Notes: generated by a model from the sequence alone, not told the origin. DNA of 64,000 nucleotides from Segetibacter sp. (GCA_031424295.1 JANPHE010000273.1:1832-65831); one strand, 5' to 3'; shown: positions 7,430 to 22,836, numbered from the stretch's first letter. A program made the numbers and translations.

Positions 7430-7691
7430 TTTTGCTAAATATTTATCAGCAGGCAGCTTTTTCGGTCAGTTTCGCCTCTAATTATTCTAAAAGGGTTGCT
7501 ATTTGGGTAAGTTGTATTATATTGCATGCTCATTTGTAACCTGAGAACGGTTCTTTCACCTTTAAGTAATTAGTTATAGAAAACTGCTACACAACATTTT
7601 GACAATCATTTAGGAAGCGAATAATAATACGCTGATGATTTGGTTGTTAAATATATTCTTCTATTTTTACAAATTTTAAACAGTTGTGTGG

Positions 7692-8888
7692 ATGAAACAA
7701 AATGCGCTAAAAACCCTTGCGGTTTTATTATTTTCTTATTCTTTTTCTGCTTTTGCTCAGGATCCTGATCCTCAGACAGCTACTATAAATGTAGTGACTA
7801 CAGCGGTGCCGTTTCTGAGAATATCTCCGGATGCACGTGCCGGTGGAATGGGTGATGTAGGAATAGCTACGTCTCCAGATGCAAACGCATCTTTTTGGAA
7901 TTTGGCAAAAACTACATTTGCTACAAGCAAAACCAGTATGGCAGTTACATATACGCCCTGGTTAAAAGATTTGGGCTTAAATGATGTTTACTTGGCTTCT
8001 CTTGCTGGTTACCATCAATTAGATGAAGAACAGGCGGTTTCTCTGGCGCTTAGATATTTTAGTTTAGGTAATATACAGTTTACTGACTTTGCCGGTAATG
8101 ACCTACAGTCTTTTCGTCCACGTGAGTTCTCTATAGAAGGCGGATACAGTCGTAAATTAAGTTCAAAACTTGGCATTGGAGTAGCATTAAAATTTATTAA
8201 TAGCAATTTGGCTGGAGGTGCTGCGCTTAATGGTGTTCAATACAAAGCCGGAACAGCGGTAGCTGCTGATTTATCCTTATTTCACAATGGATTGAATAGC
8301 TCAGGCGAAGGTTGGAATTGGGGCGTAGTTTTAAGTAATCTTGGTTCCAAAATTTCTTATACAAGTGATGCACAGCAGAAAGACTACATTCCTGCTAACC
8401 TTGGAATAGGCGTATCAAGGACTTTTGTATTTGATGAAACAAGCAAACTTACACTCGCTTTAGACCTCAATAAATTATTGGTGCCAACGCCTCCTCAATT
8501 TACCAATGATGCAGCCGTGGACTCTGCCAATCTTACCAATTACAGAACTAAAAGTGTCATTAGTAGTTGGACAAGCAGCTTTGGCGACTCCGGTGGGTTT
8601 GGTAATGAATTGAAGGAAGTTCAAGCGTCTATAGGTGCAGAGTACACTTACAATGACCAATTCTCTTTCAGGGCCGGATATTTTTATGAAGATAAGTTGA
8701 AAGGAAACCGTAAATATTTTACACTCGGAGCAGGCCTAAAATACAATGTTTTTGGACTTAATTTTTCTTACCTCGTTCCTTCAGGAAATGGCGTGAATAG
8801 AAATCCTTTGTCAAATACACTACGTTTCAGCATTGTGTTTGATTTGGATTCAAATGCAGGTGCTAGTACAACTACTCCGGCTCAATAG
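7692..8888 (+). CDS. porV: Type IX secretion system outer-membrane protein PorV (LptO)
   Basis: Signal peptide, then VTTAVPFLRISPDARAGGMGDVGIATSPDANASFWNLAK, the conserved PorV N-terminal signature. The remainder is beta-barrel-like and ends in an aromatic-rich strand. ATG at 7692 is preferred over GTG at 7686. Confidence 0.85.
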   Translation: MKQNALKTLAVLLFSYSFSAFAQDPDPQTATINVVTTAVPFLRISPDARAGGMGDVGIATSPDANASFWNLAKTTFATSKTSMAVTYTPWLKDLGLNDVYLASLAGYHQLDEEQAVSLALRYFSLGNIQFTDFAGNDLQSFRPREFSIEGGYSRKLSSKLGIGVALKFINSNLAGGAALNGVQYKAGTAVAADLSLFHNGLNSSGEGWNWGVVLSNLGSKISYTSDAQQKDYIPANLGIGVSRTFVFDETSKLTLALDLNKLLVPTPPQFTNDAAVDSANLTNYRTKSVISSWTSSFGDSGGFGNELKEVQASIGAEYTYNDQFSFRAGYFYEDKLKGNRKYFTLGAGLKYNVFGLNFSYLVPSGNGVNRNPLSNTLRFSIVFDLDSNAGASTTTPAQ

Positions 8889-12133: not shown

Positions 12134-13270
12134 TTATTTAGTACATTCCATACTGCAAAATCTGCTGTATAACTTTTCATACAGCGGAATGATGTTTTGG
12201 ATATCAAATTTTTTCGCCTGTTCAAATGCATTCTTTTTGAAAGTTGCAAGTGTCTCTTCATTGCCAAGAATTTCAATGGCAAACTTACTCATGCTTTCTA
12301 CATCGCCTAAATCGGCGAGGTAGCCTGTTTTTCCATGAATGTTTACTTCTGGTAATCCACCAACATTTGTGCTGATTACAGGCGCACTTGCTGCCATAGC
12401 TTCTAATGCAGATAGTCCAAAACTTTCATATTCGGAAGGCAAAATGAATAGGTCACTAACTACCAAAATTTCTTCCATTTGTTCTTGTTTGCCCAGAAAG
12501 CGAACGTCATCTTCTATGCCCAATTCCTTTGCCAATTCTTCCATTGGTGGTCTTTCAGGTCCGTCGCCAACCATCAATAATTTACTATTGATTTTCTCAC
12601 GCACCTTTGCAAACATTTTTATTACATCTTCTACACGTTTTACTTTTCTAAAGTTGGAAGCATGCACTAATATTTTTTCGCCGTTTGGTGCTATTACTTT
12701 TTTAAAAGCATCAATGGGTTTTTTACTAAATCGTGATACATCAACGAAGTTGTGTATTACATCAATATCCTTAGTAATCGCAAATGATTTATAGGTTTCT
12801 TCTTTCAAATTGTGACTTACCGCTGTGATGGCATCACTCTCATTGATACTGAAGGTAACAACAGGTGCATACGTTTTGTCTTTGCCAACTAAAGTAATGT
12901 CCGTGCCATGAAGGGTCGTTATTACTGGAATTTTTTTACCGGCTTTGGCGACAATCTGTTTTGCCATATAAGCCGCCGAAGCGTGAGGTATGGCATAATG
13001 AACATGCAGCAAATCAAGATTGTGGTGCATAATGACATCTACCATAGTGCTAGACAATGCTACTTCGTAAGGTGGATAATCAAACAACGGGTAAGTGGGT
13101 ACACGTACTTCATGATAAAAAATATTTGCACTGAAAAAATTTAACCTTACCGGTTGTTGGTAAGTAATGAAATGCACTGAATGCCCCTTATCTGCAAGTG
13201 CCTTTCCTAATTCTGTAGCGAGCACTCCACTTCCGCCAAAAGTTGGATAACATACTATTCCGATACGCAT
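12134..13270 (-). CDS. bshA: N-acetyl-alpha-D-glucosaminyl L-malate synthase (bacillithiol biosynthesis, GT4)
   Basis: MRIGIVCYPTFGGSGVLATELGKALADKGHSVHFI..., the typical BshA N-terminus. The GT-B C-terminal E-x7-E region is LPSEYESFGLSALEAMA. Confidence 0.8.
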   Translation of the reverse strand: MRIGIVCYPTFGGSGVLATELGKALADKGHSVHFITYQQPVRLNFFSANIFYHEVRVPTYPLFDYPPYEVALSSTMVDVIMHHNLDLLHVHYAIPHASAAYMAKQIVAKAGKKIPVITTLHGTDITLVGKDKTYAPVVTFSINESDAITAVSHNLKEETYKSFAITKDIDVIHNFVDVSRFSKKPIDAFKKVIAPNGEKILVHASNFRKVKRVEDVIKMFAKVREKINSKLLMVGDGPERPPMEELAKELGIEDDVRFLGKQEQMEEILVVSDLFILPSEYESFGLSALEAMAASAPVISTNVGGLPEVNIHGKTGYLADLGDVESMSKFAIEILGNEETLATFKKNAFEQAKKFDIQNIIPLYEKLYSRFCSMECTK

Positions 13271-13589
13271 GGTAGTAGTTCTATTTTAATTTAACAGGCA
13301 ACAAACCTTTGTACTATTAATATTGTTTCAAATCCGAACAAATAATAATTAATGTTTTGCCTTAGAATTTTTGGTATTAGCTTTTGGCTAATACAACTTA
13401 GTGCAAGTAACAATAATTTATTGTATTTGGTTTACCGCTGCCTATTGTCTTTCTACCGTTTAATTAATATAGATGTTTGTTTAATGGGTTTAAACAAGTG
13501 TTTCATAAACGTTAATAAACCAAAAATATTTTTTTAGACGACAAAGGTTTACTTTTATCCGTCGTCTAAAATTAACTGATCGAGACAAT

Positions 13590-14090
13590 ATGATTACACT
13601 TCGTCCATGGCTGGAAACAGATGCTGAGTTGTTGACCGTTTATTATAATAATATCAGCATTTGGAACAATTTACGAGATTATGTGCCAACTCCCTATACA
13701 TTGGAAGATGCGCAGAAATTTATTGGTTCACAGTCAGATATAGTTCCGGCATTAAATTTTGCTATATTGAGTGGCGAAGATTTAGTAGGAGGAATTGGGA
13801 TTACCCTTGGCGAAGACGTATATAGGATGAATGTAGAACTTGCTTATTGGATAGCCGAACCATTTTGGGGTACAGGTATAGCTACAGAAGCTGTTCGCAT
13901 CATGACTCAGCATGTCTTTTTGAATTTTGCTATTAACAGAATAATAGCAGAAGTATTCGAATACAACAAGCAGAGTATGCGTGTATTGGAAAAGAATGGG
14001 TACCATTTGGAATGTGTAAGAAGAAAGGGAGTATTAAAAAATGAATATTTGTATGATAACTATGTCTGGGTTTGCCAGAAAATTATTTGA
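13590..14090 (+). CDS. GNAT family N-acetyltransferase (RimJ/RimL-like)
   Basis: 166 aa. WGTGIATEAVRIM and NKQSMRVLEKNGY are typical GNAT motif A and C-terminal elements. Confidence 0.75.
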   Translation: MITLRPWLETDAELLTVYYNNISIWNNLRDYVPTPYTLEDAQKFIGSQSDIVPALNFAILSGEDLVGGIGITLGEDVYRMNVELAYWIAEPFWGTGIATEAVRIMTQHVFLNFAINRIIAEVFEYNKQSMRVLEKNGYHLECVRRKGVLKNEYLYDNYVWVCQKII

Positions 14091-14152
14091 GGATTAAACT
14101 TTTCATCAATTATTAGTCTAAAGCTTTTAATAAAAAATCTATAAAACTGTTT

Positions 14153-14392
14153 ATGATCAAAAAAAATATCGCAACCAACGAATTTGGTTTTGTTTTTAAC
14201 CCTTCTACAGGGGACTCTTATAGCAGTAATCCCATCGCTGCTGAAATTATCCAAAAAATGAAGGAGAGTATTTCATTGGAAGACATAAAAAGTTTTCTTG
14301 TTGGAAAATATGATGTTGAGAAATCAATCATTGAAAAGGATGTAGATGAGTTTGTGACTATCTTGAAAGAGAACAATTTATTAGCCAACTAA
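14153..14392 (+). CDS. PqqD-family small protein (RiPP-recognition-element-like chaperone)
   Basis: 79 aa. ...FVFNPSTGDSYSSNPIAAEIIQKM...SLEDIKSFLVGKYDV....IEKDVDEFVTILKENNLL follows the PqqD pattern: a beta-strand containing a T-G turn (PSTGDSY here), followed by a helical bundle. Confidence 0.65.
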   Translation: MIKKNIATNEFGFVFNPSTGDSYSSNPIAAEIIQKMKESISLEDIKSFLVGKYDVEKSIIEKDVDEFVTILKENNLLAN

Positions 14393-14404
14393 TCTTTTGC
14401 AAAT

Positions 14405-15457
14405 ATGAGTAATGATCAAAAACCTGTGGTAGTTGCTGTGACAGGCCTCAATGCAATTGATAGTCCCGGACCAGGCGTAGCAGTTATACGTGGCATCAGA
14501 AATGGTATGGACAGGGAAGTTAGGATAATTGGTTTGTCATACGAAGCACTAGAGCCAGGTATTTATATGGATGGCGTCTGCGACAAGGTTTATCAAGTGC
14601 CATATCCTGCTGCTGGCAGCGATGTATTGTACAATAGGATTGCTTACATCAACAGCGTAGAAAACGTTGATGTTATTATTCCGAATTTTGATGCGGAGTT
14701 GTATAATTTTATAAAGATAGCCCCTCGCTTAAATTTATTGGGCATCCATTCATTTTTGCCCACTTTTGAAATGTTTGATGCAAGAGATAAATTGAACTTA
14801 TATTCATTTGGACAAAAACATTCGTTGCATGTTCCCAAGGATAAAGTCATCTATAATGTTGAAGATTTGTATTTGATAGGAGAGGAGTTTGGTTATCCGT
14901 TGGTAGTAAAGGGGAAATTTTATGATGCGGTAGTATCTTATACTTTAGAGCAGGCGCAAAAAGCATTTTATAAGCTTAGTGCCAAATGGGGACTTCCAAT
15001 TATTGTTCAACAATTTATTGCAGGTACTGAAGTAAACATTGCTGCATTAGGGGATGGCGAAGGCAATGCAATCAGTATTATTCCGATGCGCAAGATGTAC
15101 ATTACCGATAAAGGGAAAGCATGGGCGGGAATAACAATAGAGGATGATGCTATGATAGCGATGGCAAAGAACTTCATCAGTGCAACCAAATGGAAGGGTG
15201 GATTTGAAATAGAAATAATGAAGACAGTAAATGATGAACTTTATATTATGGAGATAAACCCAAGGTTTCCCGCATGGATCTATTTGTCTGCCGGTGCAGG
15301 TCAAAATCAACCTGCAGCTTTGGTAAAAATGGCAATTGGAGAGAAGGTTGATCCTTACACTGAATATGAAGTGGGTAAAATGTTTATTCGGTATGCGTGG
15401 GACTTGATAACAGATGTATCGAAATTTCAGCAGATAAGTGCCTTTGGAGAAATGTAA
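14405..15457 (+). CDS. ATP-grasp family carboxylate-amine ligase, specificity unknown
   Basis: 350 aa. YPLVVKGKFYDA, IIVQQFIAGTEVNIA and ELYIMEINPRFPAW are ATP-grasp B-loop and Mg-ATP motifs. It starts 12 nt after the PqqD-like gene. Confidence 0.8.
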   Translation: MSNDQKPVVVAVTGLNAIDSPGPGVAVIRGIRNGMDREVRIIGLSYEALEPGIYMDGVCDKVYQVPYPAAGSDVLYNRIAYINSVENVDVIIPNFDAELYNFIKIAPRLNLLGIHSFLPTFEMFDARDKLNLYSFGQKHSLHVPKDKVIYNVEDLYLIGEEFGYPLVVKGKFYDAVVSYTLEQAQKAFYKLSAKWGLPIIVQQFIAGTEVNIAALGDGEGNAISIIPMRKMYITDKGKAWAGITIEDDAMIAMAKNFISATKWKGGFEIEIMKTVNDELYIMEINPRFPAWIYLSAGAGQNQPAALVKMAIGEKVDPYTEYEVGKMFIRYAWDLITDVSKFQQISAFGEM

Positions 15458-15588
15458 AATTTTTTGAGCTATTTATTAGCTATTTTGAGGTCAATGAAGG
15501 CTATTAATAAAAATGAAAATACACCTGTCATCCTGATTTATTTTAACAACATAAATTTTTAGAACTTTTATAAAATACAATACAAAGC

Positions 15589-16935
15589 ATGGAAAAACTA
15601 AAGTATGAAAGACCGCTGATTAAGAAAATGAATGCTGGATTGATGAACAAATTCGGAACACAATCCGAATTTACTCCTGTAAAGGAAATAGATGGGGTTT
15701 CTGTAAAAAGCATGATAGAAAATTATGGCTCTCCGGTTTTTGTTTTAAGCGAACAAAAGATAAGACAGAATTATAAATCGGCTGTTCGTGCCTTTAAAAC
15801 ACGTTACCCAAAAGTTCAGTTTGCCTGGAGTTATAAAACGCATTATAACAACGCCATTTGCAGAATTTTTCACCAGGAAGGAGCTTGGGGAGAAGTAGTT
15901 AGTGGTTTTGAATATAGAAAAGCATTGGGTAATGGCGTACCTGGAAGCACCATTATTTTTAATGGTCCGGATAAGCAAATTGATGAAATTAAACTGGCCA
16001 TAGAAAATGATTCATTGCTGCACATCGATCATTTTGAAGAACTATATGCTTTAATTGAATTGAGTGCTGAACTAAAGAAGAAACCAAGAGTAGCTATCAG
16101 GGTAAATATGGATACGGGTATTTATCCAATGTGGGATAGATTTGGCTTTAATTACGAGAATGGTCAGGCGTGGTCAGCAATTACCAAAATTGTAAATTCA
16201 GGTACATTGGAATTGACAGGATTGCATACACATATTGGTACCTATATGCTAAGCACTCATGCATATTCGGTGGCGGCTGCTAAGCTTTGCGATCTTGCTG
16301 TAGAATGTAAGAATCAATTGAAGACTACAATAAAATACTTGGATATGGGAGGTGGTTTTCCTAGTGCTAATACATTAAAAGGCTCTTTTTTACCCGGTGC
16401 TGATACCGTCCCATCTATTGATGAATTTGCAGAGGCCATTACAACGACTATCTTAAGTTCAGAATTGCGCAATGACGAATTGCCTTTATTGATATTAGAA
16501 AGTGGCCGATTATTGATTGATGATGCAGGTTACCTTTTAGGATCTGTATTAGCTAATAAGCGTTTAAGCGATGGTAGAAAAGCGACTATCATGGATTTTG
16601 GAGTAAACATATTGTTCACCTCTTTTTGGTACGATCATAAAATTAGCCCTGCACAAGACCTTAGCCACTTTACAGAAGATACCGTTTTGTACGGCCCATT
16701 GTGTATGAATATCGATGTAGTAAGAGAAAGTGTTTGTCTTCCCTTGCTAAACAAAGGAGATCATGTAGTAGTACATAAAGTAGGAGCATATAACATGACC
16801 CAATGGATGCAGTTTATTGCTATGAGACCAAACATCGTGTTGATTGATACAAAAGGGCAAACCCACGTTGTTAGAAAAGCTGAAACATTAGACTACCTAC
16901 AACAACTTGAGGAAATACCGGCTCATTTGAAGTAA
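15589..16935 (+). CDS. Fold-type III PLP-dependent decarboxylase (Orn/DAP/Arg decarboxylase family)
   Basis: FAWSYKTHYN carries the PLP-lysine context, DMGGGFPS is the Gly-rich phosphate loop, ESGRLLID is the EPGR-like motif, and YGPLCMNIDV carries the active-site Cys. Confidence 0.85.
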   Translation: MEKLKYERPLIKKMNAGLMNKFGTQSEFTPVKEIDGVSVKSMIENYGSPVFVLSEQKIRQNYKSAVRAFKTRYPKVQFAWSYKTHYNNAICRIFHQEGAWGEVVSGFEYRKALGNGVPGSTIIFNGPDKQIDEIKLAIENDSLLHIDHFEELYALIELSAELKKKPRVAIRVNMDTGIYPMWDRFGFNYENGQAWSAITKIVNSGTLELTGLHTHIGTYMLSTHAYSVAAAKLCDLAVECKNQLKTTIKYLDMGGGFPSANTLKGSFLPGADTVPSIDEFAEAITTTILSSELRNDELPLLILESGRLLIDDAGYLLGSVLANKRLSDGRKATIMDFGVNILFTSFWYDHKISPAQDLSHFTEDTVLYGPLCMNIDVVRESVCLPLLNKGDHVVVHKVGAYNMTQWMQFIAMRPNIVLIDTKGQTHVVRKAETLDYLQQLEEIPAHLK

Positions 16936-16940
16936 CCTAA

Positions 16941-19139
16941 ATGCCAAATTTGAAACAAACGCAGATAATATCGTTTCTAAAGTTTGCAGGGCTTTCTATT
17001 TTGAACAGTTATTCCATGTTGTTCTTTTCAAAGAATAGCTGGTTGGCTGTAATGATAATGGTCATTACTTTTTTTAATCCTCATAGTGGATTGGCAGGCG
17101 TAGCGGCTACTGCTATTGCTTTGCTATCTGCTTATGCTATGGGGTTTGGAAGATTGCAAGTCAAGACAGGATTGTACACTTACAGTGCTTTATTGCTTGG
17201 CCTTGGTATGGGTACTTTCTACGATTACAGTGCAGCGTTTTGGATATTATTGGCTTTCGCTTCCCTTATTTCTGTTTTATTATCAGCTGCTTTTATAGCT
17301 AAGTTGGCAAAAAATGGTTTGCCAGCTTTGTCGTTAGGATTCATATTGAGCTTTTGGCTTGTAATGCTGGCTTCTAAAGAGTTTTCTGCTATTGGATTAA
17401 CTACAAGAAATATTTATTGGCTCAATGAAATGTATGCAACCGGAGGCAACAAGTTGATCTATTATTTTCAATTGATAGAAAACTGGACATTACCCGATTA
17501 TGTAGCCGGCTTCTTTCGCTCAATGAGTGCCATTATTTTTCAAAATAATTTGTTAGCCGGTGTCTTATTGTCTGTTGGTCTGCTAATCCATTCTCGCATC
17601 GGTTTTTTATTAATGGTTGTAGGATATGCCGTTGCAATGATTTTCAACGGGTTCATGGGTGGATTTCCTTTGGGCGGCGTGAACTATTATAATATGGGAA
17701 CCAACTTCATGTTGGTTGCTGTTGCTATTGGAGGCTTCTATATCATCCCTTCAATATTTTCATTCTTATGGGCATGTTTAATCGTTCCACTTTCGTACAT
17801 ATTGGTAGTAGCTTTAGGTAAGATTACTTTTTTATGGGGGCTTCCCGTTTTCTCACTTCCATTTTGCATAGCTGTTATCTTGTTTCTTTATTGTTTAAGG
17901 TTAAGAACAAACCCGGGACGATTGGTATTGACGCCCATTCAATATTATAGCCCCGAAATAAATCTTTATAGGTACATCAATGGAAAAGACAGGCTGATGA
18001 ATCAGTTTTATCACCACCTTGCTTTGCCAGTGCTTGGTGAGTGGATGGTCAGTCAGGGTTATAATGGTACCATGACCCACAAGGGAGATTGGAATAAGGC
18101 GTTGGATTTTGTAATATTGGATCCTGAAATGAAAACATATGCAATGCCCGGCATTTTGCCTGAACACTTTTACTGTTACAATAAACCAGTTGTAAGTCCT
18201 GCAGATGGCATAGTAGAAGAAATAGTTGATTTCATAGATGATAATGAAATTGGAAAAACAAATACAGGACAGAATTGGGGGAATAGTATTGTAATAAAAC
18301 ACGCCGATTCTTTATATACCAAATTGTCGCACCTTAAGAAAAATTCTTTTAAAGTAACCAAAGGTCAATACGTAAGAAAAGGAGAAATAATAGCTGCCTG
18401 TGGTAGTTCGGGTAGGTCTCCCGAACCGCATTTGCACTTTCAGGTGCAATCCACCCCTTATGTAGGATCAAAGACAATGTACTATCCACTTTCATTTTTT
18501 TATGCACGCAAAGATGACAATGAAAAACTGGAAACCTTTGTTGTACCAAAGGAGGGTGACTTTGTGACTAATGTAATGACTAATAAACAACTTCAGAAAG
18601 CGTTTAATTTTCAGCCGGGTTTTGTGTTAAAGGTGAGTGCTGATGGCTTTGAAACGGAAGAGTGGGAGGTGGTAACAAGCATTTACAATGAATCTTATCT
18701 TTATTGCGAACAACACAATGCCTTTGCGTATTTCACATACAATGGAACACTTTTTTATTTTACCAATTATTTTGGAAAAAAAGATACCCTCCTTTACCTA
18801 TTTTATTTATCTGCCTACAAAGTGCTGCTTAGTGCTGAAAAAGACATAACCGTCAATGACAATTATCCATTGAATATTCTTGGTTTTAGGCCAATAAGGT
18901 GGATACAGGATTTGGTTGCTCCTTTCTTCATTTTCATTAAAATTAATTATCATTCTACTGTGAAAAAGAGAAATGAGTTAAGTGATTATAATATTGAGCT
19001 AACCAGCGAGCAAAATCAATCAATACTTGGAATCACAAAAGATAAAATGCAGTCAACAATAATTGTTCAAAATGGCGCACTGCATGCTTTCAAGGTTATT
19101 ATTAATAATAAAACAATAGAGGCTACATGTACAGAATAA
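16941..19139 (+). CDS. Fusion protein: urea-transporter-like membrane domain, M23 peptidase domain and ~210-aa C-terminal domain of unknown function
   Basis: The first ~330 aa are polytopic. ILNSYSMLFFSKNSWLAVMIMV...GLYTYSALLLGLGMG resembles the UT-family signature (GQV-F-Q-N...GLYGFNG-LVGLA). Residues ~370-510 contain HKGDWNKALDF and SGRSPEPHLHFQV, the M23 H-x-x-x-D and H-x-H zinc motifs. Confidence 0.65.
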   Translation: MPNLKQTQIISFLKFAGLSILNSYSMLFFSKNSWLAVMIMVITFFNPHSGLAGVAATAIALLSAYAMGFGRLQVKTGLYTYSALLLGLGMGTFYDYSAAFWILLAFASLISVLLSAAFIAKLAKNGLPALSLGFILSFWLVMLASKEFSAIGLTTRNIYWLNEMYATGGNKLIYYFQLIENWTLPDYVAGFFRSMSAIIFQNNLLAGVLLSVGLLIHSRIGFLLMVVGYAVAMIFNGFMGGFPLGGVNYYNMGTNFMLVAVAIGGFYIIPSIFSFLWACLIVPLSYILVVALGKITFLWGLPVFSLPFCIAVILFLYCLRLRTNPGRLVLTPIQYYSPEINLYRYINGKDRLMNQFYHHLALPVLGEWMVSQGYNGTMTHKGDWNKALDFVILDPEMKTYAMPGILPEHFYCYNKPVVSPADGIVEEIVDFIDDNEIGKTNTGQNWGNSIVIKHADSLYTKLSHLKKNSFKVTKGQYVRKGEIIAACGSSGRSPEPHLHFQVQSTPYVGSKTMYYPLSFFYARKDDNEKLETFVVPKEGDFVTNVMTNKQLQKAFNFQPGFVLKVSADGFETEEWEVVTSIYNESYLYCEQHNAFAYFTYNGTLFYFTNYFGKKDTLLYLFYLSAYKVLLSAEKDITVNDNYPLNILGFRPIRWIQDLVAPFFIFIKINYHSTVKKRNELSDYNIELTSEQNQSILGITKDKMQSTIIVQNGALHAFKVIINNKTIEATCTE

Positions 19140-20311
19140 AACTGTTTATTTTTTTTGCAGGGATGTTGATCACTTCTTTGCTAAGTGCTCAGACAAATAT
19201 GACTTTTGAAGAAGTTAATACAAAGAGTTATTCATTGTATGAAAAGAGTAATTGGAAAGAGTTATTGCAATTTGGTGATAACGCTATAGGAAGTGGACAA
19301 GATTTCATTTTGCTTAGGCTGAGGTTGGGTTATGCTGCCTTTATGCTCAATAATTTCAGTAAATCTATCAAGCATTATGAAGCAGTAATTAAAGAAGATT
19401 CGTATAATGCTACGGCGCATTATTATCTTTTTCTCTGTAAGAAATACCTAAACCATGAAGCACTTGCAGATAGGCATGCAAAGTATCTTGCCGAAGAAGT
19501 TTTGAAAAATGAAAAGCTGAACGCTTTTGCTTTAACAGGTGTCGGATTGGAAGTTAGTTATAAGCAGACCGACATTAAAGCTAGAGAAAACTCATTGTAT
19601 GCCAGACTTGATTTAGGTACCCGATTGGGGTGGAATATTCATATGGTCAACGCAGTAGGAATGTACAATCAGGTAGTACGCGAACCGAAGTTAACTGCTG
19701 TATTAAATAATAACAATATTCAGGTAAACCAGAAGGAGTATTATAATAAAACCCTGATCAATGTGTCTAATAAGATACAACTAAAAGCGATTTATCATTT
19801 CCTAAATACACCATTTAATAACTTTGTTTATTCCAATCATGTTGGAGGTCTTGGGTTGACTTATTTTAATCATTATTATGATATTAGCGCAGATGCCAAC
19901 ATTGCTAAGTTGACTGATTCTACTTATTACCAATACAATGTTAAGCTTGGATTGTATCCTTTAGGAAACCTCAATTTTTATAGTTTTTCTACAGGGATCC
20001 TTAGAACTAATTCCAATACCGGAACGGCATTTAATATTAAACAGGTTATTGGCTTTAAACTTATGAAGAAAACATGGGTCGAAGTAAATGGAACTTTTGG
20101 AGAATTTAACAATTTGCTTGAGAATGACGCATTGTATGTGTATAATGCAATAGATAAAAATACGTTTAAGGCGGGTGGGACCCTATATGTTACACCTACT
20201 TCAAATTTAGTTTTGACGGTTGGATATACTTATGAAAAAAGAGAACTTTATAAAACACTTTTACCTTTTAATCAACACTCAATAACAGGAGGTCTATCAT
20301 GGAAATTGTAA
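19127..20311 (+). CDS. Secreted protein with an N-terminal TPR-like region and a predicted C-terminal beta-barrel
   Basis: Signal peptide MYRIKLFIFFAGMLITSLLSAQ. LRLRLGYAAFMLNNFSKSIKHYEAVI shares a motif with the two downstream TPR proteins. The C-terminal two thirds are alternating-hydrophobic beta-strand-like and end ...ITGGLSWKL. It overlaps both neighbours by 13 nt. Confidence 0.5.
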   Translation: MYRIKLFIFFAGMLITSLLSAQTNMTFEEVNTKSYSLYEKSNWKELLQFGDNAIGSGQDFILLRLRLGYAAFMLNNFSKSIKHYEAVIKEDSYNATAHYYLFLCKKYLNHEALADRHAKYLAEEVLKNEKLNAFALTGVGLEVSYKQTDIKARENSLYARLDLGTRLGWNIHMVNAVGMYNQVVREPKLTAVLNNNNIQVNQKEYYNKTLINVSNKIQLKAIYHFLNTPFNNFVYSNHVGGLGLTYFNHYYDISADANIAKLTDSTYYQYNVKLGLYPLGNLNFYSFSTGILRTNSNTGTAFNIKQVIGFKLMKKTWVEVNGTFGEFNNLLENDALYVYNAIDKNTFKAGGTLYVTPTSNLVLTVGYTYEKRELYKTLLPFNQHSITGGLSWKL

Positions 20312-20919
20312 AAAAAATATTCGTAGTTAGTGCCATTTTATTTCATGCTGCCGTTGGTATTGCTCAGAATGTGAGTAATATGGAAAAAGCATTTAACGGA
20401 AGTTATAATGAGGAATATCTGAAAAATTATGAAAAGGCTATCGCTGAGCTTAATAAAGTTTATAGCAGCGATAGTTACGAAATGAATTTACGGTTGGGTT
20501 GGTTATATTATCTGAGCAAAAATTATGAAACTTCAGGTAGTTACTATCAAAAAGCGATTAGCCAAAAACCAGAGGCGCTAGAACCGAGATTGGGTATTGT
20601 AATGCCCCTTGCTTTCTTAGATGATGGTACAAAGTTATTGCAACAGTATGCTAGCATAATTAAGTTACATCCTCAAAATACTATTGCTAATTATTGGTCG
20701 GGAGTCATTAACTACAACAAAAAAGATTACAAATCAGCCCAGAAATTTTTTGAAAAAATTGTCGAACTCTATCCATTCGATTATGATTCAAATCACATGT
20801 TAGCTTGGTCGCTTTTAAACCAAGGTAAAAGTGCTGAAGCAAAAACATTTTTTCAAGCAGCCTTGATGGTTCGGCCAAGCGATGCCTCTGCACTTGAAGG
20901 ATTGGGTAAAATAAAATAA
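20299..20919 (+). CDS. Secreted TPR-repeat protein (paralogue 1)
   Basis: Signal peptide plus TPR-like helices (NLRLGWLYYLSKNYETSGSYYQKAI; YWSGVINYNKKDYKSAQKFFEKIVELYP). Confidence 0.7.
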   Translation: MEIVKKIFVVSAILFHAAVGIAQNVSNMEKAFNGSYNEEYLKNYEKAIAELNKVYSSDSYEMNLRLGWLYYLSKNYETSGSYYQKAISQKPEALEPRLGIVMPLAFLDDGTKLLQQYASIIKLHPQNTIANYWSGVINYNKKDYKSAQKFFEKIVELYPFDYDSNHMLAWSLLNQGKSAEAKTFFQAALMVRPSDASALEGLGKIK

Positions 20920-20945
20920 TTTATAAATCAACAAATTAATCAGTT

Positions 20946-21563
20946 ATGAAAACTATCAATAAAATAATAATTTTAGTAGCAATTGTGTTTCAGTCAATGA
21001 CTGTTTTTTCTCAATCAGGAGACCTTCAAAAAGCATTTGTAGAAAGCTATACACAGGAATACAATAAAAAATATACAGAGGCTATTGCTTCATTGGTAAA
21101 AGTATACAATGAGAAAAGCTATGAAATAAACTTGCGGTTAGGGTGGTTAAATTATATAAATGGTAATTACCCCCAATCTCAAAGTTATTACCAAAAAGCG
21201 ATCAACCTAAAGTCCTATTCCATTGAAGCTAAATTAGGGATGATTAAACCATTATCAGCCTTGGAAAGCTGGGATAAGGTATTGCTACAGTATGAAGAAA
21301 TACTAAAGATTGACCCTCAAAATGCCAATACTAATTATTGGGCAGGTATTATTTATTACAATAGAAAAAAGTATGACGCAGCTGCAAAGTATTTCGAAAA
21401 GGGGGTAAATTTATATCCATTTGATTACGATTCTAACCACATGCTGGGGTGGACTTATCTAAATTTGGGTCGTGCGCAAGATGCGAAAATTTTATTTAAA
21501 AAAGCGCTGCTCAGTCATCCAGGCGATGCTTCTGCTACCGATGGTCTTAGCAAGTGTAAATAG
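20946..21563 (+). CDS. Secreted TPR-repeat protein (paralogue 2, tandem duplicate)
   Basis: Collinear with the preceding protein, with roughly half the positions identical by eye. Compare NLRLGWLNYINGNYPQSQSYYQKAI and LYPFDYDSNHMLGWTYLNLG with LYPFDYDSNHMLAWSLLNQG. Confidence 0.7.
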   Translation: MKTINKIIILVAIVFQSMTVFSQSGDLQKAFVESYTQEYNKKYTEAIASLVKVYNEKSYEINLRLGWLNYINGNYPQSQSYYQKAINLKSYSIEAKLGMIKPLSALESWDKVLLQYEEILKIDPQNANTNYWAGIIYYNRKKYDAAAKYFEKGVNLYPFDYDSNHMLGWTYLNLGRAQDAKILFKKALLSHPGDASATDGLSKCK

Positions 21564-21990: not shown

Positions 21991-22836
21991 ATGATTAAAG
22001 CATTTATTCTTACTGTAGTTCTTTCGATGCAATTGATTTTTGCATCAGGAAGGCCAATAATAGGTAATGTTATCTTTCCTATGAATACCGAGTCTTCATT
22101 TGTTTCATTTACAGATAACAATAAAGATAAAGAAGCAGTAATTGAAAAGGCTACTTCTTTGTATGAGTTATTGAATCTTTCTGAACTCGGGCTTTCAAAA
22201 TCTGCCTATGAATATGCTATTCAAGGTTACGTCACACTTTTGAGTAACGGGAAATTAAATAATTCCAATGTTTTATCAATAGTTGACTTCAGCCACCCAT
22301 CCAGTAAAAAAAGGTTGTATGTGATTGATTTGAAGAATGGGAAATTACTTTTCAATACCTACGTTGCACATGGAAGGGGGTCGGGCAGAGAAATGGCAAG
22401 TGATTTTTCCAATGCGCCTGAGAGCAATAAAAGCAGCCTTGGTTTTTTTGTTACAGGAGATACTTATTTTGGAAAGCATGGTTTATCACTTCGCCTATTT
22501 GGTGAGGAAAAAGGTATAAATGATAATGCGAACAGCCGTGCAATAGTAATGCACAGTGCTTCATACGTTACGGAAGACATAATAAAAACCCAAGGTTTTA
22601 TTGGTCGCAGCCAGGGTTGCCCGGCATTACCCGAAGCCTTAAGTAAGCCAATTATTGACAAAGTGAAAAATGGAAGTTGTTTATTTTTATATAGTCCGGA
22701 TAAATTTTATCTGACAAATTCCCGCATTCTCAAAAATGTTATTAAGGAGGAAAAACCAGTAGCCATTAATATATTCAAAGGAAAATATTTTTCTTCCTTT
22801 TTCATGTCTCTTTTAGCCCTGATTAATCATATATAA
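21991..22836 (+). CDS. L,D-transpeptidase catalytic-domain-like protein (YkuD_2 type)
   Basis: YVAHGRGSG...SSLGFFVTGDTYFGKHGLSLRLFGEEKGINDNANSRAIVMHSASYV...GRSQGCPALP contains the H...G-x-S-x-G-C-P catalytic motif of murein L,D-transpeptidase-like proteins. Confidence 0.7.
   Translation: MIKAFILTVVLSMQLIFASGRPIIGNVIFPMNTESSFVSFTDNNKDKEAVIEKATSLYELLNLSELGLSKSAYEYAIQGYVTLLSNGKLNNSNVLSIVDFSHPSSKKRLYVIDLKNGKLLFNTYVAHGRGSGREMASDFSNAPESNKSSLGFFVTGDTYFGKHGLSLRLFGEEKGINDNANSRAIVMHSASYVTEDIIKTQGFIGRSQGCPALPEALSKPIIDKVKNGSCLFLYSPDKFYLTNSRILKNVIKEEKPVAINIFKGKYFSSFFMSLLALINHI

Follow-up and report, generated by a model that had tools for sequence, protein, structure and literature searches.

The 64,000-nucleotide (nt) stretch of Segetibacter sp. 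DNA analysed here (GCA_031424295.1 JANPHE010000273.1:1832-65831; the whole stretch is referred to as the window) carries, at positions 14153-16935, three open reading frames (ORFs) on the + strand, which encode a small PqqD-like protein, an ATP-grasp ligase and a pyridoxal 5'-phosphate (PLP)-dependent decarboxylase. The position of this triad, to which an initial annotation had drawn attention, was confirmed. The PqqD-like protein is a RiPP recognition element (RRE; RiPPs are peptides that are made ribosomally and modified after translation), and there are strong grounds in the sequences to infer that its cognate 'leader' would be the N-terminal tail of the neighbouring decarboxylase, not a separate peptide. 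The locus is best explained as a conserved, multi-phylum, envelope-spanning module of which the triad forms the cytoplasmic core. The host of the window is a Segetibacter-like member of the Chitinophagaceae, and the most closely related locus (L001) is 98% identical.

The module was compared across two sets of loci, namely 80 Bacteroidota genome loci, retrieved with the ATP-grasp of the window as the query, and 80 metagenome loci from a scan seeded with a non-Bacteroidota member, for which counts refer to the informative loci. An exhaustive search of 1.84 billion representative proteins additionally returned 222 clusters at E<=1e-30, and family membership was tested with Pfam and NCBIfam models and their curated cut-offs. 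In the window (13590-21563) the gene order is (GNAT)-PqqD-ATP-grasp-decarboxylase-[urea-transporter (UT) domain + M23]-394-amino-acid (aa) protein (predicted outer-membrane barrel)-tetratricopeptide repeat (TPR), and the identical order, with the GNAT gene being optional, was found in 80/80 Bacteroidota genome loci. The same order recurs in about 90 further metagenome loci. In the metagenome set, PqqD lies upstream of the ATP-grasp in 71/73 loci, the decarboxylase downstream in 64/64 and a UT-domain protein after the decarboxylase in 45/47, M23 being part of it in 44, while the module is followed, or in some lineages preceded, by a TPR or barrel protein in 37/38, at GC contents of 0.30-0.74. 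The association of PqqD, ATP-grasp and decarboxylase is far beyond chance. Judged by source name, carriers of the module belong to the Bacteroidota, Myxococcota, Bradymonadia, Planctomycetota and Thermodesulfobacteriota/Deltaproteobacteria, and the annotation of its genes is always generic. The initial annotation regarded the ligase and the decarboxylase as the only enzymes next to the PqqD-like protein, a view that has to be given up, as the GNAT upstream and the UT+M23 fusion, barrel and TPR proteins downstream share the conserved module.

Conservation within the module is also high. In the 80 loci, which span Chitinophagia, Sphingobacteriia and Flavobacteriia, identity amounts to 69-98% for the ATP-grasp and 70-99% for the decarboxylase, far more than is usual in a cluster presumed to make a secondary metabolite. 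Across bacterial classes both proteins are still 70-80% identical. Little space is left between the genes; gaps are often 2-40 nt, and the UT-M23, 394-aa and TPR genes overlap one another by 13-25 nt. Among the homologue clusters, PqqD is naturally fused to the ATP-grasp in P0198 (477 aa) and the ATP-grasp to the decarboxylase in P0171 (871 aa), and ~711-aa proteins with two ATP-grasps in tandem occur as well. No description of the module was found in the literature searched for the combination of PqqD, ATP-grasp, decarboxylase, urea transporter, M23 and SIR2. An anti-phage defence function was considered and rejected, since PADLOC matched none of the module proteins.

The 79-aa protein is a genuine PqqD-family RRE, as had been proposed from its sequence. 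It scores 44.5 bits against the Pfam PF05402 cut-off of 23.4, and its family profile retrieves, among solved structures, TfuB1 (6JX3, 1.8e-13) and TbiB1 (5V1U, 8.5e-12), followed by PqqD (3G2B). The conserved residues N26, D63 and F67 align in sequence with the leader-binding N33, D70 and F74 of LppB, the Asn-Asp spacing of 37 residues and the position of Phe at D+4 being the same in both proteins. RREs of this type bind a [Y/W]xxPx[L/V/I/F/A] leader motif; the Asp forms a hydrogen bond with the leader Tyr, the Asn fixes the kink at the leader Pro and the Phe divides the cleft (PMC13381572). Only G12, G20, N26 and D63 are invariant or near-invariant across phyla. The C-terminus varies (LLAN, LLNN, LLEN or VSND), and the serine of the 'GDS' sequence is unconserved outside the Bacteroidota, with GQT, GET or GDL in other phyla. 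A variable C-terminus and the lack of any invariant Ser, Lys or acidic residue apart from the structural, leader-binding Asp63 leave a covalent-carrier role of the kind implied in the initial annotation unsupported, and a part resembling that of LysW or an acyl carrier protein (ACP) was rejected. On the other hand, the absence of the usual RRE partner enzymes, reported in the initial annotation, was borne out by Pfam scans of the module and its flanks, which returned no radical SAM enzyme, YcaO, lasso B2/C protein or other such partner.

A leader motif of the kind bound by these RREs is found at the N-terminus of the decarboxylase. Matches to the LysA and FslC models begin at decarboxylase residue 33, leaving outside them a tail of ~23 residues with the consensus YE[RSK]Px[ILV]...G..NK[FY]G. 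Of the decarboxylases in the module set, 71/71 from Bacteroidota and 66/68 from elsewhere show the pattern Y..P.[LIVM], the two exceptions being a YEPMRL variant in a double-ATP-grasp lineage and a tail-less, non-module paralogue in L098. Among 109 unique sequences from 137 loci, numbered from the Tyr as position 0, conservation reaches 100% for Y(0), P(+3) and I/L/V(+5), 95% for E(+1), 96% for G(+11), 91% for N(+14), 98% for K(+15) and 90% for G(+17), the last two keeping their spacing even in the most divergent lineages. The YxxPx[ILV] of the tail matches the [Y/W]xxPx[L/V/I/F/A] motif of discrete lasso-type RREs (PMC13381572). In lasso precursors YxxPxL spans positions -17 to -12, and -2 is the recognition residue (PMC10368454); with Tyr at -17, tail position +15 therefore corresponds to -2 and +17 to the core Gly1, i.e. 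the register is the same. A scan of all module proteins detected the motif, in conserved form and away from any folded domain core, in the decarboxylase tail only. Lineages with a double or second ATP-grasp have a shifted motif (YEPMRL or YEPPRV) and retain Lys(+15). A separate RRE and the tail motif are both kept even where the ATP-grasp and the decarboxylase are already fused, which implies that their contact must do more than tether two enzymes. The tail, like the rest of the module, was missed in the initial annotation, and on sequence grounds it is the most probable RRE ligand.

The search for a separate precursor peptide covered ORFs of at least 20 aa in and around the triad of the window and of at least 15 aa in ~90 diverse loci, and gaps were measured in 80 loci. 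When all ORFs were clustered, no conserved small ORF was found in the flanks or gaps of ~170 loci, and only shadow ORFs of real genes recurred. In many loci the genes overlap or are separated by 2-40 nt, which is too short for a precursor gene. A precursor encoded in cis was thus rejected by ORF clustering and gap measurement across both locus sets. A riboswitch or other RNA element was likewise rejected, as no Rfam element matched at the gathering threshold or at E<=1. A classical RiPP pathway with its precursor encoded elsewhere, in which the RRE would present the peptide, the ATP-grasp add an amino acid, the decarboxylase trim it and the M23 peptidase remove the leader before export, would accord with a lasso-B1-like RRE whose leader-binding residues are intact; the M23 peptidase could act as a leader peptidase, and precursors as short as FzmZ, a 21-22-mer, have escaped notice in the past (PMC13622209). 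Such a pathway is nevertheless improbable. It is rare for a RiPP precursor to be encoded apart from the enzymes that process it, and the loci without a conserved small ORF come from several phyla; moreover, the identity of the ATP-grasp and decarboxylase across classes is unlike that of fast-evolving RiPP systems, a UT pore cannot pass a peptide, and the decarboxylase tail already offers a perfectly conserved cognate motif.

Table 1. Features of the module and of neighbouring DNA, with positions counted from the first nucleotide of the window
Feature	Position	Strand	Model or remark
GNAT acetyltransferase, RimJ/RimL type (Acetyltransf_3)	13590..14090	+	PF13302 E=1.3e-25
PqqD-family RRE, 79 aa, lasso-B1-like	14153..14392	+	PF05402 E=1.9e-11
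ATP-grasp ligase, 350 aa (ATPgrasp_Ter / 'CPSase-like' PRK12767 type)	14405..15457	+	PF15632, PF02655 (ATP-grasp_3)
Fold-type-III (alanine-racemase fold) PLP decarboxylase, 448 aa, FigC-like	15589..16935	+	PF02784 (Orn_Arg_deC_N), PF00278 (Orn_DAP_Arg_deC)
N-terminal extension of the decarboxylase, residues 1-23, MEKLKYERPLIKKMNAGLMNKFG	15589..15657	+	absent from LysA/FslC models
YERPLI in the decarboxylase tail	15604-15621	+	
Lys21 of the decarboxylase tail	15649-15651	+	
Decarboxylase tail peptide bearing Y6, P9 and I11, MEKLKYERPLIKKMNAGLMNKFGTQ			
UT+M23 inner-membrane protein, 732 aa	16941..19139	+	PF03253 E=6.7e-49; PF01551 E=7.6e-17
Urea-transporter-fold domain of the 732-aa protein	aa 19-318, nt 16995-17894	+	PF03253
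M23 metallopeptidase domain of the 732-aa protein	aa 414-504, nt 18180-18452	+	PF01551
Conserved C-terminal domain of the 732-aa protein	nt 18453-19136	+	
394-aa secreted protein, TPR-like N-terminal part and predicted outer-membrane beta-barrel	19127..20311	+	signal peptide
Two tandem paralogous periplasmic TPR proteins	20299-20919 and 20946-21563	+	TPR families, signal peptides
PorV	7686-8888		type IX secretion
EnvC-like coiled-coil protein, 470 aa	10721-12133		M23 domain C-terminal
GT4 glycosyltransferase	12134-13270	-	Pfam GT4 families
Inverted repeat AGACGAC...GTCGTCT	13537-13568		7-bp arms
YkuD_2 L,D-transpeptidase-like protein	21991-22836		

The catalytic motifs ascribed to the decarboxylase are all present and, in alignment with FigC and diaminopimelate (DAP) decarboxylase (DAPDC), intact, i.e. 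the PLP lysine K83 in WSYKTHY, GGGFP, ESGR and PLCMNID. That the enzyme might be an ordinary LysA, serving lysine housekeeping and clustered with the other genes incidentally, was among the explanations weighed. The lysA model TIGR01048 is the highest-scoring NCBIfam model, and the gene is highly conserved and lies among housekeeping genes. However, its 210.8 bits fall below the curated cut-off of 297.9, as do the 214-225 bits of module decarboxylases from other phyla, and the score on the FslC model NF041039 is 197.7 against a cut-off of 500. In the PDB, FigC (7KH2, 176 bits) is the best match and outscores every DAPDC, with the Methanocaldococcus jannaschii enzyme (1TWI) at 144 and BtrK at 84. 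At the level of residues, Arg343 of DAPDC (M. jannaschii numbering), which binds the distal carboxylate of meso-DAP (PMC7857480), is replaced by Thr, and the Cys-Glu pair that includes the catalytic Cys is Cys-Met, as in FigC (C354-M355). Strict synteny with PqqD, ATP-grasp and UT genes and the existence of fusions also speak against LysA, which was rejected and is scarcely credible as an explanation; the distinction from housekeeping LysA implied in the initial annotation is thereby upheld. The window holds no paralogue of the decarboxylase within its 64 kb, and a second decarboxylase near the module in L098, examined as a possible true LysA, scores 172 bits and is likewise below the lysA cut-off.

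FigC, SbnH, AcsE, MccE and BtrK form a clade with DAPDC and act on conjugated amino acids (PMC7857480), and the Cys-Met and Thr pocket predicted for the module decarboxylase fits a substrate whose distal end is a neutral amide. For the pair of enzymes, the most sensible chemistry is still that envisaged in the initial annotation, in which an amino acid is first ligated and then decarboxylated. BtrK, which was held there to be the sole precedent, is not the only one, because FigC, SbnH, AcsE and MccE also decarboxylate conjugated amino acids.

The ligase contains EINPRFPAW, in agreement with the INPRFPAW motif first reported for it, and its ATP/Mg residues K169, E268, N285 and R287 are near-invariant in 81 diverse homologues. 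NCBIfam returned only sub-threshold 'carbamoyl-phosphate-synthase-like' PRK12767 matches. The protein lies outside the RimK and LysX clades (rimK_fam, 23 bits against a cut-off of 143; LysX, 17.6 against 275.6), and neither sequence nor fold matched it to the peptide- or protein-modifying ATP-grasps of the graspetide, RimK and LysX clades. AlphaFold2 modelling from a shallow alignment (76-85% identical) gave a pLDDT of 45 and was discarded, while a deep alignment gave 95.9. A fold search with the latter model retrieved 2PN1, an uncharacterised protein, at a template-modelling (TM) score of 0.78, followed by biotin carboxylases, carbamoyl-phosphate synthase (CPS), RizA and PurD, all at 14-19% identity, and no close characterised relative was found in that search. 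The substrates of the ATP-grasp cannot be read from homology.

Several loci contain additional or separate ATP-grasps. A tandem double ATP-grasp (~711 aa) or a second, truncated ATP-grasp precedes the decarboxylase in L088 (8001-10136), L089 (1736-3877) and L085 (4980-5852), which hints at two ligation steps in these lineages. The order is PqqD - ATP-grasp - decarboxylase - UT+M23 in L092, TPR - PqqD - double ATP-grasp - decarboxylase - UT+SIR2 in L088 and TPR - PqqD/ATP-grasp fusion - degenerate ATP-grasp - decarboxylase - UT+SIR2+GNAT in L085. Paralogues ~45% identical to the ATP-grasp of the window occur without a decarboxylase or UT protein in L081 (8001-9056), L090 (7747-9047) and L091 (7415-8715). 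The paralogue in L081 stands alone, downstream of PTL_trimer/T6SS_HCP-type genes, and those in L090 and L091 are paired only with a weakly PqqD-like 85-aa protein and adjoin a protein with a type IX secretion system (T9SS) tail. A YxxP-bearing neighbour was sought in the two-gene loci L090 and L091, and only a spurious, overlapping ORF of 20 aa was found.

The product of the gene following the decarboxylase combines a full-length UT domain (167 bits, PF03253 profile positions 3-290 of 292) with an M23 domain whose catalytic motifs 'THKGD...LD' (H..D) and 'PHLHF' (HxH) are kept in 53 homologues. With 90.7 bits against a cut-off of 274.6, the UT-M23 protein does not reach the yut equivalog, and no urease or urea-metabolism genes were found in the module or its flanks. 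In other lineages SIR2 or SIR2+GNAT stands in place of M23 after the UT domain. In proteins of the UT fold (UT-B, dvUT) both termini are cytoplasmic, and SIR2 proteins are a family of protein-lysine deacylases. Because the NAD- and acetyl-CoA-dependent SIR2 and GNAT domains take the place of M23 elsewhere, and because UT termini are cytoplasmic, the M23 domain would be expected to lie in the cytoplasm. The bacterial UT-M23 architecture has been recorded without a function or gene context (PMC12998343, 2026), and the 732-aa protein of the window has the same arrangement of a UT domain with a C-terminal M23. The present analysis adds the obligatory link of UT-M23 to PqqD, ATP-grasp and decarboxylase, and the M23/SIR2 swap.

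The remaining proteins extend the module outwards and upstream. The gene for the 394-aa protein begins, in most loci, within the last 13-25 nt of the UT-M23 gene. Its product shows an alternating hydrophobic/polar pattern from ~aa 140 and a C-terminal Phe in 44/53 homologues, features that indicate a probable outer-membrane location. The two TPR proteins of the window are 51% identical to each other. Copies standing side by side were seen elsewhere only in the close relative L001, and most other Bacteroidota loci have a single copy within the retrieved sequence. The GNAT gene lies directly upstream of PqqD in 64/80 Bacteroidota loci and is absent from Flavobacteriia/Sphingobacteriaceae-type loci, so that GNAT is an accessory member of the module; in L085 a GNAT domain is fused to UT-SIR2. 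In the lineage with the ATP-grasp-decarboxylase fusion, the UT protein is replaced by a 637-aa protein (L082, 10670-12583) with only marginal DUF5939 and guanylate-cyclase matches; around it are encoded large proteins of the TPR, HEAT and TonB_C types, as well as a PAS histidine kinase. A small secreted protein ~0.8 kb upstream of the module in L145 (7554-7940), L162 (7628-7957) and L167 (1027-1320) contains repeated 'FVDKNxNGICDN(F/Y)E' units, is rich in Arg, Gly and Gln, and was seen in those three metagenome loci only.

Taken together, these features may be tentatively read as a pathway in which the RRE docks the decarboxylase tail, the ATP-grasp loads an amino acid onto Lys(+15) and the decarboxylase acts on it in cis, a reading that is possible and here preferred, while being somewhat less than probable. 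In the first step, the lasso-B1-type RRE would grip the leader-like tail, and this docking would place the Asn-Lys-Phe-Gly segment (+15 to +17 of the tail) at the ATP-grasp. The ATP-grasp is proposed as the enzyme acting on the tail because, in every RRE system known to us that has been characterised, the RRE-bound peptide is the substrate of the partner enzyme, and because the two genes would be translationally coupled, the stop codon of PqqD as a rule running into or right up to the start codon of the ATP-grasp, and their products are fused in P0198. Lys(+15) was chosen as the candidate ligation site since no other residue of the conserved segment from +14 to +17 is a nucleophile. The amino acid, Glu- or Asp-like, would be ligated through its side-chain carboxylate, leaving the alpha-amino-acid head free, and the FigC-like decarboxylase would then strip the alpha-carboxylate from the tethered, neutral-amide-linked residue; this would follow the logic of BtrJ and BtrK, with an enzyme-borne lysine arm in place of an ACP. 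A cytoplasmic amidase or deacylase on the UT channel (M23 here, SIR2 elsewhere) may subsequently free the small amide or amine at the pore, the GNAT may cap the new amine, and the TPR and TPR/beta-barrel proteins may handle the product in the periplasm and outer membrane. The use of Lys(+15), the identity of the amino acid, release by M23 or SIR2 and passage through the UT pore are weaker parts of this proposal than the docking of the tail.

A number of points weigh against this scheme. Position +15 is Arg, not Lys, in the lineage with the ATP-grasp-decarboxylase fusion (P0171, L082-84), which argues against an obligatory covalent lysine carrier, at least there. In both sequence and fold, the closest neighbours of the ATP-grasp are 2PN1 and enzymes that activate bicarbonate (CPS, biotin carboxylase), and not the known ATP-grasps that modify proteins or peptides. 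To spend ATP, and in the SIR2 variants NAD as well, on a simple amine such as gamma-aminobutyrate (GABA) or beta-alanine would be wasteful, and the true product is probably something else. A urea-type pore is too narrow for most conjugates, and the normal place of M23 peptidases is outside the cytoplasm, with peptidoglycan as their target. The tail could also be a plain structural or regulatory element of the decarboxylase family.

Some of the same observations are compatible with another arrangement, the foremost alternative, in which the contact between the RRE and the tail does no more than bring ligase and decarboxylase into one complex. Two free small molecules would then be linked by the ATP-grasp, for instance an acid and the distal amine of ornithine, lysine or 2,4-diaminobutyrate, or the side-chain carboxylate of Glu or Asp and an amine. 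The decarboxylase would work on the free conjugate, as in FigA/FigC, and a small neutral N-acyl amine or amide would exit via the UT channel. In favour of this arrangement, no solved structure is closer to the decarboxylase than FigC, in which the Cys-Met and Thr substitutions recur, and small neutral amides are suitable cargo for a pore of the UT fold. By fold, the ATP-grasp has its nearest neighbours among small-molecule enzymes (2PN1, RizA, PurD, biotin carboxylase, CPS), and the K(+15)-to-R change of the fusion lineage is compatible with a non-covalent role. Such channelling is nonetheless rather unlikely, given that an RRE-bound peptide has been the substrate of the partner enzyme in every characterised case and that the RRE and tail persist in spite of the ATP-grasp-decarboxylase fusion, so that simple tethering is not their whole role. 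The conservation of K(+15) and G(+17) at fixed spacing counts against it as well, as does the presence of SIR2, M23 and RimL-type GNAT, which are families that act on proteins and peptides, not on small molecules.

The register of the tail, with Tyr at -17 and Gly at +1 exactly as in lasso leaders, also admits the explanation that the decarboxylase is a pro-enzyme. The tail would then be a leader that keeps the enzyme inactive or targets it; the RRE would present it to M23 in the manner of lasso B1 and B2, cleavage before Gly(+17) would activate the decarboxylase, and the ATP-grasp would act on the new N-terminus or on an unrelated substrate. M23 peptidases favour bonds beside Gly, and the catalytic motifs of the M23 domain are intact. 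However, the RRE is coupled or fused to the ATP-grasp and not to the peptidase, SIR2, which is not a protease, replaces M23 in some lineages, and the motif is internal in the ATP-grasp-decarboxylase fusion protein, which together make activation by cleavage very doubtful.

The preferred scheme of loading and decarboxylation on the tail can also be extended, as a long shot, to a template-free polymerase of a side-chain-free polyamide, i.e. oligo-GABA or oligo-beta-alanine ('nylon-4/nylon-3'-like), built on the lysine arm of the decarboxylase while the RRE keeps the tail in register. The ATP-grasp would repeatedly add Glu or Asp via the side-chain carboxylate, and the decarboxylase would strip the alpha-carboxylate in each round, as happens a single time with BtrJ and BtrK. 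The chain would be freed by M23, a kind of enzyme that cleaves polyglycine, or by SIR2, with its activity on N-alkyl amides, and the GNAT would cap it. A slot-shaped urea-type pore, recognising planar amides in single file, would thread the chain over the inner membrane, and a PgaA/BcsC-like TPR and beta-barrel protein would carry it through the outer membrane.

Among known systems, the module appears to work most like the ligate-then-decarboxylate pathways of butirosin (BtrI/BtrJ/BtrK) and FigA/FigC, with the addition of a lasso-B1-like RRE. In the butirosin pathway, as in the module, a small protein, an ATP-grasp and a DAPDC-clade decarboxylase are combined to act on a tethered amino acid. 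Glu is loaded by BtrJ by way of the gamma-carboxylate. Decarboxylation of the carrier-bound Glu falls to BtrK (PMC7857480). The pairing of an ATP-grasp with an alanine-racemase-fold decarboxylase recurs in the module through strict adjacency and natural fusion, which is a genomic association only. The small protein of the module, however, is a PqqD/RRE and not a phosphopantetheinylated ACP, the proposed tether is a lysine on the decarboxylase tail, BtrK is a distant relative (84 bits), no aminoglycoside genes are present, and the module has as further partners a UT-M23 membrane protein, an outer-membrane barrel and TPR proteins. FigA/FigC (FslA/FslC) of rhizoferrin biosynthesis, SbnH, AcsE and MccE resemble the module in ligating first and decarboxylating the conjugate afterwards. 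FigC (7KH2), like the module decarboxylase, has a Cys-Met loop and lacks the Arg that binds DAP, and MccE likewise pairs such a decarboxylase with a RimL-type GNAT. In contrast to FigA/FigC, the ligase of the module is an ATP-grasp and not an NRPS-independent siderophore (NIS) synthetase, of which the module has none, siderophore transport genes are lacking, and His357 of FigC is Ile; the N-terminal tail and the RRE have no counterpart in the FigC, SbnH, AcsE and MccE systems.

The lasso B1 RREs (TfuB1/FusB1, TbiB1) and LppB/LppA of the LPP system are likened to the module by the best RRE matches, the N/D/F residues, the motif and its register. The module differs from them in that Pfam scans found no B2 protease, lasso cyclase or kinase (the B2 protease and the cyclase are absent from the module in other loci too), the motif is borne by a 448-aa enzyme and not by a short precursor, and the partner enzyme is an ATP-grasp. 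Two further systems offer a conceptual likeness only. In the LysW/LysX system an amino acid is loaded by an ATP-grasp onto a carrier protein, where it is altered by later enzymes before a metallohydrolase sets it free, and in borosins such as OphMA the peptide segment that becomes modified is part of the very enzyme that tailors it. The 79-aa protein, however, has neither a conserved acidic C-terminus nor a zinc ribbon, TIGR00768 and TIGR02144 are only marginal on the module ATP-grasp, unlike LysX, and, unlike borosins, the module has no methyltransferase. The module is no member of the butirosin, FigA/FigC, lasso or LysA systems because their defining features fail, namely an ACP, a NIS synthetase, a B2 protease, a lasso cyclase and a cis precursor are all absent and the LysA and FslC cut-offs are not reached.

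The flanks of the module in the window encode, according to Pfam, PorV, IspF, dUTPase, DUF4292, an EnvC-like M23 protein, a GT4 glycosyltransferase, YkuD_2 and SucA/SucB. PorV, the gene of which lies 5 kb upstream with no link seen to the module, confirms a Bacteroidota host with a T9SS. The EnvC-like and YkuD_2 genes, both of a cell-wall type, are non-syntenic with the module in other loci, and their proximity therefore looks incidental. The GT4 gene is divergent from the module, an adjacency kept only in the near-identical L001; its product, confirmed only as a member of Pfam GT4 families, has an N-terminal sequence that may resemble BshA, the bacillithiol glycosyltransferase. The 318 nt that separate the GT4 gene from the module contain an inverted repeat, ~20 nt upstream of where the GNAT gene starts, which may represent a regulatory site or what is left of a terminator; a terminator scan did not flag it. 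Counts from the sigma-70 promoter and terminator scan did not exceed those of shuffled controls, the scan being one that does not cover Bacteroidota promoters.

RREs are used worldwide as a class-independent handle for RiPP genome mining, under the assumption that a small precursor peptide lies nearby. The module described here appears to be a large, multi-phylum RRE family in which the conserved ligand motif resides on an enzyme, a PLP decarboxylase. Its interest rests on this leader-like decarboxylase tail and on the conserved multi-phylum, envelope-spanning module, and not on PqqD as a carrier. If true, RREs would also serve to assemble enzymes or to position a protein-borne carrier arm, and this would explain a class of 'orphan' RRE matches for which no precursor can be found. 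It would likewise provide the first functional handle on a highly conserved module that joins cytoplasmic ligate-then-decarboxylate chemistry to a UT-fold channel and an outer-membrane barrel.

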